Of a stretch of 64,000 bases of DNA, positions 16,388-26,079 are shown piece after piece. The position numbers were made by a program, and so were the translations under genes. Below the pieces are notes generated by a model. It was given only the letters and a program-made list of their open reading frames with translations. It had not been told where the DNA came from and did no database searches. The stretch is from Alphaproteobacteria bacterium (lineage in GTDB: Bacteria > Pseudomonadota > Alphaproteobacteria > UBA6615). The number at the start of each line of letters is the position of its first letter. Within the stretch, counting starts at the first letter, position 1. The stretch spans positions 327,030-391,029 of the forward strand of contig OZ253937.1 in the NCBI GenBank assembly GCA_965267185.1. The letters are read 5' to 3'.

Positions 16388-18211
16388 ATGTGCGGCATTA
16401 TCGGTATTCTGAGTTCCGGCGACGTGGCGCCGCAATTGCTCGACGGCCTGAAGCGCCTCGAGTATCGCGGTTACGATTCCGCCGGCATCGCTACCTTGGT
16501 CAACGGCCATATCGACCGGCGGCGTGCCGAGGGCAAGTTGGTCAATCTCGAAGCCGAGCTCGATGCGCGCCCGCTTCCCGGCGATGTTGGTATCGGCCAT
16601 ACGCGCTGGGCGACCCACGGTGCGCCTGTCGAGATCAACGCCCATCCCCACGCCACCCACCGGGTCGCCGTGGTGCATAACGGCATTATCGAGAACTTTC
16701 AGACCCTGCGTGCCGAGCTCGCGGCGGCCGGCCACAACTTCGAAAGCGATACCGACACCGAAGCGATCGCCGCGCTGATCACGCGCGAGCTTGACGATGG
16801 CGCATCGATTCCCGAAGCAGTATCGGCGACCCTCAAACGGCTCGAAGGCGCGTTTGCGCTGGCGATTATTTTCTCCGGCGAACACAACATGATGGTCGGC
16901 GCCCGCCGCGGCAGCCCGCTGGCGGTGGGCTATGGCGACGGCGAGATGTTTCTCGGCTCCGACGCCCTGGCACTGGCGCCGCTCACCAAACAGATTTGCT
17001 ATCTCGAAGAGGGCGACTGGGCGCTGGTGACGCGCAACGGTGCGTCGATCTTCGACGAAGGCGGCGTCGCGGTGGAGCGCGAAATCCGCGAAACCGAGCT
17101 GTCGGGGGCGCTGATCGGCAAGGGCACCTACCGTCACTTCATGCAGAAGGAAATCTTCGAGCAACCGGCGGTGGTCGGCGATACGCTGCAAAGCTTCGTC
17201 AACGCCACCACCCGCGAGGTGAGCCTGCCGGCCCTGCCCTTCGATCTGGCCACCGTGCCGCGCATCACCGTGGTCGCTTGCGGCACGGCGTGCTTTGCCG
17301 GCTGGGTCGCCAAATACTGGCTCGAGCAGGTCGCGCGCATCCCGGTCGAGATCGACGTGGCATCGGAGTTCCGCTACCGCGAGGCGCCGATGCCCGAGGG
17401 CGGCGTGGCGCTGTTCGTCAGCCAGTCGGGCGAGACCGCCGACACCCTGGCGGCGCTGCGCCACTGCCGCAAAATGGGCCAGCATGTGGTCTCGGTGGTT
17501 AATGTGGCGGAAAGCTCGATCGCGCGGGAGTCCGACGTGGTGCTACCGACCCTGGCGGGGCCGGAGATCGGCGTCGCTTCCACCAAGGCGTTCACCACGC
17601 AGCTCGCGGCGCTGGCCTGCTTCGTTATCGCCGCCGCTAAGGCACGGGGATCGATCGACGGCAAGCGCGCCGCCGAACTGGCCGGGGCGCTCACTGAGGT
17701 GCCCTCGCGCATGACCGAGGTGCTCAACCACGACGAAGATTTACGCGCCATCGCCGCCGATATCGCCGAGGCGCGCGATGTGCTCTATCTCGGCCGCGGC
17801 ACCGCGTTTCCGATCGCTTTGGAGGGTGCGCTCAAGCTCAAGGAAATTTCCTACATCCACGCCGAGGGCTACGCCGCCGGCGAGATGAAGCATGGCCCCA
17901 TCGCGCTGATCGACGAACACGTCCCGGTGATCGTGTTGGCGCCGCCGGACGCGCTGTTCGACAAAACGCTATCGAACGTGCAGGAGACCATCGCGCGCGG
18001 CGGCAAGGTGGTGTTCCTCTCCGACAAGGCAGGCGCGGCGCGCATGAAGGATCAGGCGTGGTACAGCGTCGAGATGCCACGGGTCGACGATTTCGTCGCC
18101 CCGCTTCTCTACGCCATTCCGGTGCAACTGCTCGCCTATCACACGGCGGTGGTTAAAGGCACCGACGTCGACCAGCCGCGCAACCTGGCGAAAAGCGTCA
18201 CGGTAGAGTAG
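16388..18211 (+). CDS. glmS: Glutamine-fructose-6-phosphate aminotransferase
   Basis: MCGIIG, RLEYRGYDSAG, GHTRWATHG, SQSGETADT, LKLKEISYIHAEG, DVDQPRNLAKSVTVE. Confidence 0.98.
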   Translation: MCGIIGILSSGDVAPQLLDGLKRLEYRGYDSAGIATLVNGHIDRRRAEGKLVNLEAELDARPLPGDVGIGHTRWATHGAPVEINAHPHATHRVAVVHNGIIENFQTLRAELAAAGHNFESDTDTEAIAALITRELDDGASIPEAVSATLKRLEGAFALAIIFSGEHNMMVGARRGSPLAVGYGDGEMFLGSDALALAPLTKQICYLEEGDWALVTRNGASIFDEGGVAVEREIRETELSGALIGKGTYRHFMQKEIFEQPAVVGDTLQSFVNATTREVSLPALPFDLATVPRITVVACGTACFAGWVAKYWLEQVARIPVEIDVASEFRYREAPMPEGGVALFVSQSGETADTLAALRHCRKMGQHVVSVVNVAESSIARESDVVLPTLAGPEIGVASTKAFTTQLAALACFVIAAAKARGSIDGKRAAELAGALTEVPSRMTEVLNHDEDLRAIAADIAEARDVLYLGRGTAFPIALEGALKLKEISYIHAEGYAAGEMKHGPIALIDEHVPVIVLAPPDALFDKTLSNVQETIARGGKVVFLSDKAGAARMKDQAWYSVEMPRVDDFVAPLLYAIPVQLLAYHTAVVKGTDVDQPRNLAKSVTVE

Positions 18212-18292
18212 GGGCGTTTCCCTTTTTGCTTTTGCTCGCCCGTGGCAAGCAATTATGCTGTGCTGCGGCGACGAAACGATAGGCGAGATAGC

Positions 18293-18733
18293 GTGCTAAC
18301 CACGGTTTCCGACATTTCGGTGAACCAGACCATCTGGCGGCTAAACGAAACCGACACCGCGTATGACGCAGCTGTCTTGATGACCGAGCGGGATATCTCC
18401 GCTGTGCTTATCTACGACAAAGACGAACGACTGGTGGGGATTGTTACGGAACGCGACATCGCCCGCCGCGTCGTTGCGGAGGGCCGCGATCCCAAATCAA
18501 CGGGCGTACGCGACATGATGACGCGCGACGTCGAGACAATAGAGCCTGGCGAGAGTAACAACCGGGCGCTACGCATTATGCAAGCGCGGCGAATTCGTCA
18601 TTTGCCGATTGTCGAAGAGGGACGTGTGGTCGGGATCGTATCGATGCGAGACTTAAGACGGTCCCGGGCTCAGACTTTCCCTCGCAATGTTGGTCGGGTT
18701 TTACGTCGAACATTTCGCAAACGAGCGGCGTGA
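18293..18733 (+). CDS. Stand-alone CBS-pair protein
   Basis: LVGIVTERD...MTRDV, RIRHLPIVE.GRVVGIVS.RDL; ORF open from 18242. Confidence 0.85.
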   Translation: MLTTVSDISVNQTIWRLNETDTAYDAAVLMTERDISAVLIYDKDERLVGIVTERDIARRVVAEGRDPKSTGVRDMMTRDVETIEPGESNNRALRIMQARRIRHLPIVEEGRVVGIVSMRDLRRSRAQTFPRNVGRVLRRTFRKRAA

Positions 18734-18813
18734 GTTTGGTAATCGTCAGCGCGAGACCGTTGCGAGAGAACGTTCATAGCACTGGGGCGGCGGGTAATAT
18801 CTGCACTTTCGTG

Positions 18814-19851
18814 CTATTCGGAGTCGTCGTAGCCACCATCGTCATCACCTCCGCCGGCGTCGCTTCCGTATCTTTGCAATTCATGGAATGGTACACGTTC
18901 CTCGATCGATTGAGCAGTTAGATTGAGCAGGCGCTCGGGCCGCAGAAATGTTAAGCGGACGCCTTTCCCAATAGGCAATTCTGGGACGGAGTCGTTGCCG
19001 TCAATTTTATCTTCATCACGCAGCGAGTGCAGTTCACGCTCGAATAATTTCGTTTGTTCGGGCAGTAGGCCGATATCGATGACGGTGGCACTTTCATGGC
19101 TACCGAACCAGTCGGTGCTGGATTGAACGGTATTCGCGAAGGCGAGACCCCGCGGTGTTAGATCGTGCACAACGAAGACATCGAGCTTTGGTTGTCTTCG
19201 TAAGTTTTGGAACAGATGACGCTGGTCTCCGGTAGGGATATCGCATCCACCCATTACAACGCAGTTGTTTTCGAGGTGAAACTCATGGACCAAATAAAAG
19301 CGTGCATATTCGGGATTCTCGCAGAGCAGTAGGCGGGCTGCGGGCTGCCCATCCAATACAACGGTGGTATCGCCTTCGCCCGGTGCGGACACGGATTCGC
19401 TTATCTTATGGGTCGGCGGGTTGATCCGCTCGTAGGCTCGTATCGCGTGGATAACATTGCGCGGGTTGGTATGGGGCCGCCCAAGTGCAACTGCGGTAAG
19501 CCCGGCTACGAGTGCGATAGCAACAAACAACACAAATATGTTGAAACCAGTGAATACGAAAACGATCAGGGAAACGGCAATCGTTCCCATTACTCCGAGT
19601 GCACTCGCGATCCTTTTAGGATCATTTGGCGGCGATGACCGACGGCGAACTTCGTAAAAAAGGTGATCTTCGAGATAGTAGTAGGCCTTGTTCTTGGAGA
19701 CCCCGTCGATGCAACGCTTGATAAAAAAATCCGTTGCTCCGTCGGTTTGTGGACTTAGTGCCACCCGGTGTCCGCAATTGGGACATTGGCCCAGCGAATA
19801 CTTGCCTGTGTCCGGCTCTTTCGCCTTGTGATCGCAGTTCACACAACGCAA
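18814..19851 (-). CDS. Hypothetical protein: CxxC...CxxC zinc ribbon, two TM helices, C-terminal TOPRIM-like domain (inferred)
   Basis: TTG start at 19851 (GGGGA RBS) gives MRCVNC...CPNC; hydrophobic hairpin; LLLCE...VVHDLTPRG...IDIGLLP spacing resembles TopoVI-A/Spo11-type TOPRIM. Confidence 0.6.
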   Translation of the reverse strand: MRCVNCDHKAKEPDTGKYSLGQCPNCGHRVALSPQTDGATDFFIKRCIDGVSKNKAYYYLEDHLFYEVRRRSSPPNDPKRIASALGVMGTIAVSLIVFVFTGFNIFVLFVAIALVAGLTAVALGRPHTNPRNVIHAIRAYERINPPTHKISESVSAPGEGDTTVVLDGQPAARLLLCENPEYARFYLVHEFHLENNCVVMGGCDIPTGDQRHLFQNLRRQPKLDVFVVHDLTPRGLAFANTVQSSTDWFGSHESATVIDIGLLPEQTKLFERELHSLRDEDKIDGNDSVPELPIGKGVRLTFLRPERLLNLTAQSIEERVPFHELQRYGSDAGGGDDDGGYDDSE

Positions 19852-25606: not shown

Positions 25607-25674
25607 GGAAATTCTCCTTTGCCGTTTCGATGCACCGGCAATCACGATGACTGTCGGGTTACGTAATGCTGCGG

Positions 25675-25691
25675 TGCAACATACGTGCCAA
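25675..25691 (-). promoter_or_regulatory. Sigma-54 (-24/-12) promoter of the cyn operon
   Basis: TTGGCACGTATGTTGCA on the minus strand, 68 bp upstream of the substrate-binding protein ATG. Confidence 0.85.
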
Positions 25692-25992
25692 AGAAGGAAT
25701 TCCCCTGAATTGTTGCGTTTTCGCGGGTATTTTATGTGTTCCGGAAACCCGTTGTTGCGATGCAACGCACGATGCGTAGGCAGACCGCCCAAAAATTGGA
25801 CGGCCAGAAAACGCCTTAGTAGGAATTTGGAAATGACGCGCGCGATCTTTGGCGCCACCGGTTCGCGATGCGACGAACATGGCGATGTCTGATCCGGGCC
25901 GTCGATAATTTGTCTAGACGCGGCTCAGCTTAAAGATTCTCGGTGATTGAAGTCGCCAACATTCTCGTCAACGCGCGGCGCGCTCGAACTGG

Positions 25993-26079
25993 CTGTTGCT
26001 CACCTATCGCATGGCGGTCAAAGGTACGGACGTCGACCAGCCGCGCAACCTGGCGAAAAGCATCACGGTGGAGTAGGGG
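25993..26079 (+). repeat. Orphan copy 2 of glmS 3' end (LLLTYRMAVKGTDVDQPRNLAKSITVE*)
   Basis: 33 nt (26029-26061) identical to glmS 18164-18196; similarity extends over ~28 codons with a one-codon gap. Confidence 0.95.

Follow-up and report, generated by a model that had tools for sequence, protein, structure and literature searches.

Three copies of the glmS 3′ end around two stacked foreign cassettes in an alphaproteobacterium: candidate scars of insertion without a recombinase

The 3′ end of glmS is the site recognised by TnsD (attTn7). Tandem arrays at one att site are known, and accretion of integrative elements is exemplified by the ICESt1/ICESt3 family of Streptococcus thermophilus and by the cargo arrays that tycheposons form at tRNA genes. 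Insertion with long target duplication, described by Nobusato et al. [quoted passage not shown] When a non-replicating plasmid with a lacZ-end fragment was introduced into E. coli, 56 of 60 integrants had a variable gene-end duplication of 109–950 bp, arising by a single crossover with a degraded, re-circularised molecule, and 4 of 60 showed homology-facilitated illegitimate recombination with a deletion (PMC3240628). Here we analyse a 64,000-nt stretch of DNA from an alphaproteobacterium of the GTDB lineage UBA6615 (contig OZ253937.1, positions 327,030 to 391,029; hereafter the window), in which the end of glmS, best known as the landing site of Tn7, has gathered foreign genes with no transposase or integrase gene in or near them. 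The 3′ end of this gene is present three times around two cassettes, and we lean towards reading the two orphan copies as scars of successive insertions that took place without a recombinase.

The intact glmS gene, its three 3′ ends (tails 1 to 3) and the two cassettes lie in the window as follows.
16388..18211, + strand: glmS, intact, 607 aa, C-terminus DVDQPRNLAKSVTVE followed by the stop (Pfam SIS and GATase_6/7; translation)
18129..18214, + strand: tail 1, functional 3′ end of glmS with the 3 nt that follow its stop (through TAGGGG; BLAST end 18214)
18215..21844: cassette 1, GC 0.52–0.58, GC at third codon positions (GC3) 0.56–0.61
21845..21899, + strand: tail 2, an orphan glmS 3′ end of 55 nt, with secure homology over 45 nt from 21855
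21900..25996: cassette 2, GC 0.56–0.59
25997..26079, + strand: tail 3, 83 nt, the second orphan copy of the glmS 3′ end, with 87% identity to tail 1

The 27-mer GACCAGCCGCGCAACCTGGCGAAAAGC, reported in a preliminary description of this DNA as a core identical at three places, indeed matched exactly on the + strand at 18170, 21855 and 26035 (chance expectation, 0 matches in 100 shuffles). Each copy is followed by [G/A]TCAC[G/C]GT[A/G]GAGTAGGGG, and the similarity among the tails ends 4 nt past the stop codon in all three. With tail 1 taken as the reference (core at 18170–18196), tail 2 aligned over 55 nt at 91% identity (BLAST) and differs at two sites, both synonymous. Tail 3 aligned over 86 nt at 87% identity with one 3-nt gap (BLAST), and its translation reads LLTYRMAV-KGTDVDQPRNLAKSITVE vs LLAYHTAVVKGTDVDQPRNLAKSVTVE in the functional end: one codon is deleted, and there are four non-synonymous and four synonymous substitutions, so that the distal tail is the longest and most altered, as had been described. 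Upstream of 25997 the homology of tail 3 is not significant (147 of 2000 shuffles reached an equal score). The left boundaries of the two orphans differ (45–55 nt for tail 2 vs 83–86 nt for tail 3), and the repeats are spaced at 3.7 kb and 4.2 kb. Cargo begins 4 nt past the glmS stop; at 18210..18233 (+ strand), a terminator-like hairpin, AGGGGCGTTTCCCT, found by a consensus scan only and followed by a T-run, is made of the shared GGGG and cargo sequence. The cargo of both cassettes is compositionally foreign (GC 0.52–0.59 and GC3 0.56–0.73, vs ~0.65 and ~0.83 in the backbone).

In three sequencing runs of the source sample, unitigs bridge each junction between tail and cargo, and depth is even (backbone 105–122, cassette 1 123, cassette 2 127, downstream 120), the unitigs breaking only at 31-mers common to the tails; in a protein collection the genes are assigned to a contig of 4.33 Mb. 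These results establish the triplicated glmS tail as a real structure and not an assembly artefact. Sequencing-run searches located the organism in one sample, plus traces in one other; exact sequence look-ups of GlmS and CynS returned no recorded match.

The same layout, a functional gene end followed by intervening DNA and a second copy of that end, occurs at three other genes of the window.
3866..5510, − strand: SLC13 layout overall
5435–7201, − strand: SLC13-type permease gene; functional tail 5436–5510, orphan tail 3867–3941
48900..50377, − strand: MFS layout overall
50299–51507, − strand: MFS gene; functional tail 50294–50377, orphan tail 48900–48983
53272..53507, + strand: nadE layout overall
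51643–53319, + strand: nadE; functional tail 53272–53319, orphan tail 53460–53507

At SLC13, a tail repeat of 75 nt brackets a low-GC gene of 474 aa (4014–5438, + strand); the two tails differ at four positions, all synonymous or in the stop codon, and the orphan tail with its 'TAGAT' matches a relative, which identifies the orphan as the native end. The MFS repeat (~80 nt, with homology reaching 5 nt past the stop) carries between its copies low-GC cargo with a methyltransferase-like gene of 289 aa (49174–50043, − strand), and its orphan has non-synonymous changes and indels. The nadE tails (48 nt) bracket only 140 nt, containing a palindromic doublet of the repetitive extragenic palindrome (REP) type, and their six differences are again all synonymous or in the stop codon. 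Orphan tails at these three genes measure 48–84 nt, and the right boundary of the tail repeats always falls 0–5 nt past the stop. All five repeats in the window are 3′ tails, with no 5′ head detected by BLAST, and no motif is common to the cargo ends and the tails. The preliminary description had framed the structure as a matter of attTn7 and glmS; with three other genes sharing the layout, a glmS-specific arrangement is not supported.

REP-like palindromes of two types (CCTCATCCTGAGGAG...TCTCGAAG and CCCTCTCCC/GGGAGAGGG) adjoin the orphan SLC13 tail at 3770–3860 and lie between the nadE tails at 53335–53460. A general association with REP sequences was considered and rejected: such palindromes accompany the orphans at nadE and MFS but not those at glmS or SLC13.

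We compared functional with orphan tails in the three young pairs and found that 12 of 12 differences are synonymous or in the stop codon (four at SLC13, six at nadE and two at glmS tail 2). Had the orphan been duplicated in situ and then decayed neutrally, some 42% of the differences should be synonymous, and the probability of 12 out of 12 would be ~3e-5 (both values are estimates). Differences limited to synonymous sites offer a sequence test of an imported tail vs in-situ duplication, and this result favours tail copies that diverged inside working genes, one of them being imported with the cargo. The non-synonymous changes and indels of tail 3 and the MFS orphan would fit a greater age. 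Serial integration with the oldest event distal had been suggested for glmS, and part of this holds: two foreign cassettes are stacked, and tail 3 is the most decayed (four non-synonymous changes and a codon deletion vs none in tail 2). An order with the oldest event distal and the newest cassette proximal fits these data, short of proof.

Related genomes show the sites with a single tail. In a contig scan of 80 species-level genomes (GlmS 59–83% identical, none closer than 83%), neither an orphan tail nor a second glmS tail within 10 kb was found at any of the 80 loci. The exact GACCAGCCGCGCAACCTGGCGAAAAGC did not occur in glmS of 78 other species, where 1–11 positions differ, and the three window tails therefore belong to one narrow lineage. 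Closer relatives (L090–L094; GlmS 87–91%, ~80% nucleotide identity, not conspecific) each have one glmS tail; taken with other relatives, identity to the GlmS of the window spans 81–91%. The closer relatives have in common a backbone in the order aldehyde/xanthine dehydrogenase, ArsC, SLC13, ribonucleotide reductase, SRAP, DUF3108, glmU and glmS, which continues past a variable stretch with TauE, pyridine-nucleotide oxidoreductase, DAHP synthase, MFS and nadE. Each of them has a different interval between glmS and TauE, with similarity ceasing at the glmS stop in all cases. At SLC13, MFS and nadE, the backbone of relatives at ~80% identity has one tail and no cargo; in L091, only 10 nt separate ArsC from SLC13, and DAHP synthase, MFS and nadE lie side by side. 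The empty site of related genomes thus holds a single repeat copy, as seen in relatives that are ~80% identical and non-conspecific. In L090, the closest relative (GlmS 91%), a convergent PEP-CTERM gene directly follows glmS, as one does after tail 3 in the window, with homology between the two restricted to the sorting signal.

Some of the closer relatives show other features at this locus. In L091–L094, glmS ends in TGA overlapping the ATG of the next gene. Near glmS, L093 (1–4717 and 13073–14368) and L094 (12234–13403) carry insertion sequences (IS21-type, Transposase_mut, DDE_Tnp_1), one of which interrupts the ABC gene overlapping the glmS stop; a phage-integrase gene lies upstream of DUF3108 in the glmS neighbourhood of the same two genomes. 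The insertion sequences indicate that the hotspot was remodelled by other means in those lineages.

True tail duplications are also unusually dense here, at 4 loci in 64 kb vs 1 in 1.475 Mb of other alphaproteobacterial loci (roughly 90-fold), and none was found in 94 kb of the closest relatives. The sole other true case in the 1.475 Mb is in an alphaproteobacterial metagenome-assembled genome (L010), where the 3′ end of a 131-aa gene is duplicated over 122 nt at 97.5% identity around ~950 nt (copies at 16999–17120 and 18069–18190). Metagenome matches to the 45-nt tail were set aside as convergence: they comprise four contigs from one or two unrelated soil organisms, with a glmS body at 66%.

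We then considered the machinery that might have inserted the cassettes. Within the stretch searched, 18 to 37 kb, no tns, integrase or transposase gene was found. The scan covered the long coding-like open reading frames (ORFs) of 18.2–37.5 kb except three of the four paralogues at 27.3–31.8 kb and the ORF at 36627–37484, which was taken as TauE from its 71–77% nucleotide match to relatives' TauE; the families in this range include PEP-CTERM, GerE/LuxR-type, TauD, DUF6789, hydrolase, YjgF and hemerythrin. No inverted-repeat pair has its arms at the cassette boundaries, and no 5-bp duplication lies 23–25 bp past the glmS stop. With tns genes and terminal inverted repeats both absent, cargo starting 4 nt past the stop and repeats of 55–86 nt, Tn7-type insertion is excluded, and the non-Tn7 route that had been proposed stands. 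A dedicated tyrosine or serine recombinase with its core in the tails, also suggested earlier, fared less well: no recombinase lies in or near the cassettes, and the left boundaries of the orphans differ. The perfect 27-mer likewise failed as a crossover core, since 33 identical bases are not unusual in an 86-nt repeat at 87–90% identity and the overall similarity of the tails explains the match. The structure is not an integron either, with no IntI integrase, attI or attC hairpins, no other integrase, and repeats that are the tails of coding genes. An Rfam search of the window yielded no structured RNA but a distant tRNA-Val, and in the literature we found no integrase specific for the glmS 3′ end.

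The tails carry a region 84.6% identical to the E. coli glmS end. Orphan tails with such a TnsD-type recognition region might, as had been suggested, act as additional landing pads for TnsD, and could make mini-Tn7 insertion ambiguous in organisms of this kind. In E. coli itself, almost all of 5426 complete genomes have a single match to the 75-nt glmS end; a few genomes have it at up to three places, and one match is plasmid-borne.

On the sequence evidence, we put at slightly better than even the reading that foreign DNA was inserted twice in succession at the glmS end without a recombinase, the two orphan tails being the scars of these events. An incoming piece would carry the cargo together with its own copy of the glmS 3′ end from a related lineage, and its entry would most likely be in circular or re-circularised form. 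One homologous crossover of the Campbell type between this molecule and the resident glmS tail would then integrate the circle, leaving glmS intact and ending in the incoming or a chimeric tail, followed by the cargo, while the previous tail and everything behind it would be pushed downstream as an orphan. A repeat of this event would yield glmS, tail 1, cassette 1, tail 2, cassette 2, tail 3 and the old downstream DNA. A short segment repeated on both sides of an insert is what one reciprocal crossover between circle and chromosome yields directly, be that crossover site-specific, by an integrase, or homologous. We infer the circular intermediate, the dependence on RecA and the order of events; the homologous route is preferred to an integrase because no recombinase lies in cis, the orphan boundaries differ and the tails at the four genes are unrelated. 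If ordinary recombination on 45–90 nt of a conserved gene end suffices for adding and stacking cassettes with an essential gene left whole, gene ends would be a general, enzyme-free entry point for accessory genes, and orphan tails would be a simple, datable marker of such events.

Several observations weigh against this proposal. The homologies are short (45–86 nt), near the lower limit for RecA-dependent recombination, and no circular form, empty-site variant or donor allele was observed in the contigs of one sample. The model explains how a unit of tail plus cargo spreads, not how the first unit arose, and a generic process does not obviously predict the local excess of tail duplications. 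With a unit of ~190 nt, the nadE case is too small for a plausible double-stranded DNA circle and needs another route, such as a double crossover importing the ready-made structure, or template switching. The search for a recombinase covered 18–37 kb, and an enzyme acting in trans could lie elsewhere in the genome.

The cassettes might instead be remnants of site-specific integrative elements that accreted in tandem in the manner of cis-mobilisable elements (CIMEs), with a crossover inside the glmS 3′ end, a replacement tail supplied by the attP of each element, and a tyrosine or serine integrase since lost or acting in trans. Such elements classically leave direct repeats of a target 3′ end and a restored gene, as is the case here, and the repeats end just past the stop, as expected if only the coding part is restored; a fixed core or boundary in successive units is not present. 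The left boundary is not the same in the two orphans, the cassettes, which are full of cargo, and the 11 kb beyond them contain no gene or remnant of a recombinase, and the four genes hit in 64 kb have unrelated tails, which would call for about five traceless integrase losses or for several trans enzymes. Among the 80 loci of related species there is neither an orphan glmS tail nor such a glmS-linked island, and no excision joint was seen in the contigs of one sample. We regard this origin as unlikely. The varying orphan boundaries, the allelic tails and the lack of mobility genes would also suit linear DNA that was anchored by homology in glmS and joined illegitimately inside the resident tail, whether by homology-facilitated illegitimate recombination, template switching or end-joining; no circle is needed, and the 190-nt nadE unit could be covered. 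This is the mechanism first put forward, without an explanation, for insertion with long target duplication. Insertions with long target duplication occur mostly in naturally competent species according to Furuta et al. (PMC2853133). Homology-facilitated illegitimate recombination, however, gives an insertion with a deletion, not a duplication, and in the experiment that scored both outcomes the duplications came from single crossovers (PMC3240628). GC3 along the target genes and sliding glmS identity to seven relatives gave no signal of a mosaic tract and, at their low resolution, no sign of a longer donor stretch within the 3′ part of glmS; we give the linear route only a small chance.

A lineage-specific, as yet undescribed mobility system acting in trans might home cassettes to gene ends, the carried tail serving as its address. 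Tail duplications roughly 90-fold commoner than in 1.475 Mb, with none in the nearest relatives, speak for such a system, as does the restriction of all five repeats to 3′ tails with no 5′ head; yet the cargo ends and tails share no motif, the window holds no candidate enzyme, and the frequency estimate comes from one window. We find this system improbable, and so too its variant of precise, integron-like insertion at stop codons of conserved genes without attC or IntI. Finally, an assembly artefact would be conceivable in a mixed community where glmS contigs of other organisms cover the region at up to 4000x. The unitigs that span the junctions at backbone depth were nonetheless built at k=31 from three runs, and the tail flanks are unique and would be resolved by any read longer than 60 nt. 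A Tn7-like structure meets the absence of tns genes, terminal inverted repeats and a 5-bp duplication, and both of these explanations of the triplication are close to refuted and barely credible. 

The gene content of cassette 1 is as follows.
18242–18733, + strand: CBS-pair protein gene (Pfam/NCBIfam)
18814–19896, − strand: P0002, zinc-ribbon/transmembrane protein, 360 aa (translation; no family assigned)
19960–21825, + strand: P0003, Asn_synthase-like without a GATase domain, 621 aa (Pfam/NCBIfam)

The CBS and AsnB-like genes named in the preliminary description were borne out by Pfam/NCBIfam; the label 'TOPRIM-like' given to the middle protein was not confirmed, its structure model (pLDDT, a per-residue model confidence, of 46) being too poor for a fold search. 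P0002 has an N-terminal zinc ribbon, two transmembrane segments and a C-terminal alpha/beta domain with the motifs LLVCE and VFVVHDxTPxG. The trio forms a conserved module, also present in the unrelated genomes L085 (6424–9809), L086 (5099–9845) and L088 (6513–9887), where the P0003 homologue has as neighbours a CBS gene and a homologue of P0002 (34% identity, E 1e-60); the module is neither beside glmS nor flanked by repeats in any of the three. Homologues of P0003 are at most 52% identical and have scattered taxonomic labels; the genomes with the module are labelled Myxococcota, Planctomycetes and Gammaproteobacteria. The middle, P0002-type gene is tandemly duplicated in L086. PADLOC gave no defence-system match on cassette 1 except a weak QueC.

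Cassette 2 encodes a cyanase with an ABC transporter of the NrtABC/CynABD type.
21932–22369, − strand: cyanase gene cynS (Pfam/NCBIfam, translations)
22413–23348, − strand: ABC ATPase (Pfam/NCBIfam)
23361–24443, − strand: permease (Pfam/NCBIfam)
24197–25606, − strand: NMT1_2 binding protein with a twin-arginine translocation (TAT) signal (Pfam/NCBIfam)

Pfam/NCBIfam and the translations agree with the cynS and CynABD-type assignment made earlier. Cargo genes take up the cassettes fully: cassette 1 has no spare coding space, and cassette 2 has ~390 nt of non-coding DNA upstream of the binding-protein gene.

The DNA beyond the last tail begins with one gene convergent with glmS.
26126..27103, − strand: PEP-CTERM gene, the first after tail 3

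Four tandem paralogues of ~366 aa follow at 27284–31841, with DNA identities of 65–74%; the one that was scanned (27284–28384) has a GerE/LuxR-type helix-turn-helix, and all four are missing from the glmS–TauE interval of the relatives. Among 44 genes of the window the stop codons are TAG in 18, TAA in 16 and TGA in 10, which is unusual for an alphaproteobacterium of 61% GC. The target genes show no significant preference for TAG, which ends 18 of the 44 window genes.

When the locus is set beside the known systems, Tn7 and Tn7-like elements share its position, and the tails contain a glmS end akin to the E. coli sequence recognised by TnsD; Tn7, however, lands ~23–25 bp past the stop, makes a 5-bp duplication and carries tnsABCD and terminal repeats, and the locus has none of these features. 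Tandem accretion and CIMEs resemble it in cargo arrays parted by a repeated target 3′ end, the gene being restored by element sequence, but those arrays need a site-specific integrase with a fixed core, whereas here there is none, the boundaries vary and several unrelated targets are involved. C-terminal displacement in rhs/cdiA with orphan arrays, reportedly described by Jackson et al. in 2009, offers a formal parallel: a new 3′ end with its linked gene or genes pushes the old one downstream, and the orphans pile up on the distal side. In rhs/cdiA the tips that are displaced code for different toxins and are what the exchange is about; at the present locus the tail is conserved, and the DNA behind it varies.

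The plasmid system of Amarir-Bouhram et al. 2011 (PMC3240628) likewise gave variable gene-end duplications around foreign DNA without an integrase, but with a laboratory plasmid and homologies of 109–950 bp, compared with 45–86 nt at this natural locus. The likeness to insertion with long target duplication extends to inserts below 20 kb without mobility genes, direct repeats longer than 30 bp of which a relative's empty site has one copy, repeats that often span the stop with the target intact, and an insert of deviating GC; the glmS repeats of 55 and 86 nt, spaced at 3.7 and 4.2 kb, fall within those sizes. That insertion type is known for restriction-modification genes, whereas the cargo here is metabolic or has no assigned function, two inserts are stacked, four genes are hit in 64 kb, and copies differing only synonymously point to an imported allelic tail as opposed to a copy of the target. 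The locus thus exemplifies clearly, and in stacked form, a type of integrase-free insertion that is known but has received little study, and it adds to this type the synonymous-only signature and the local abundance.

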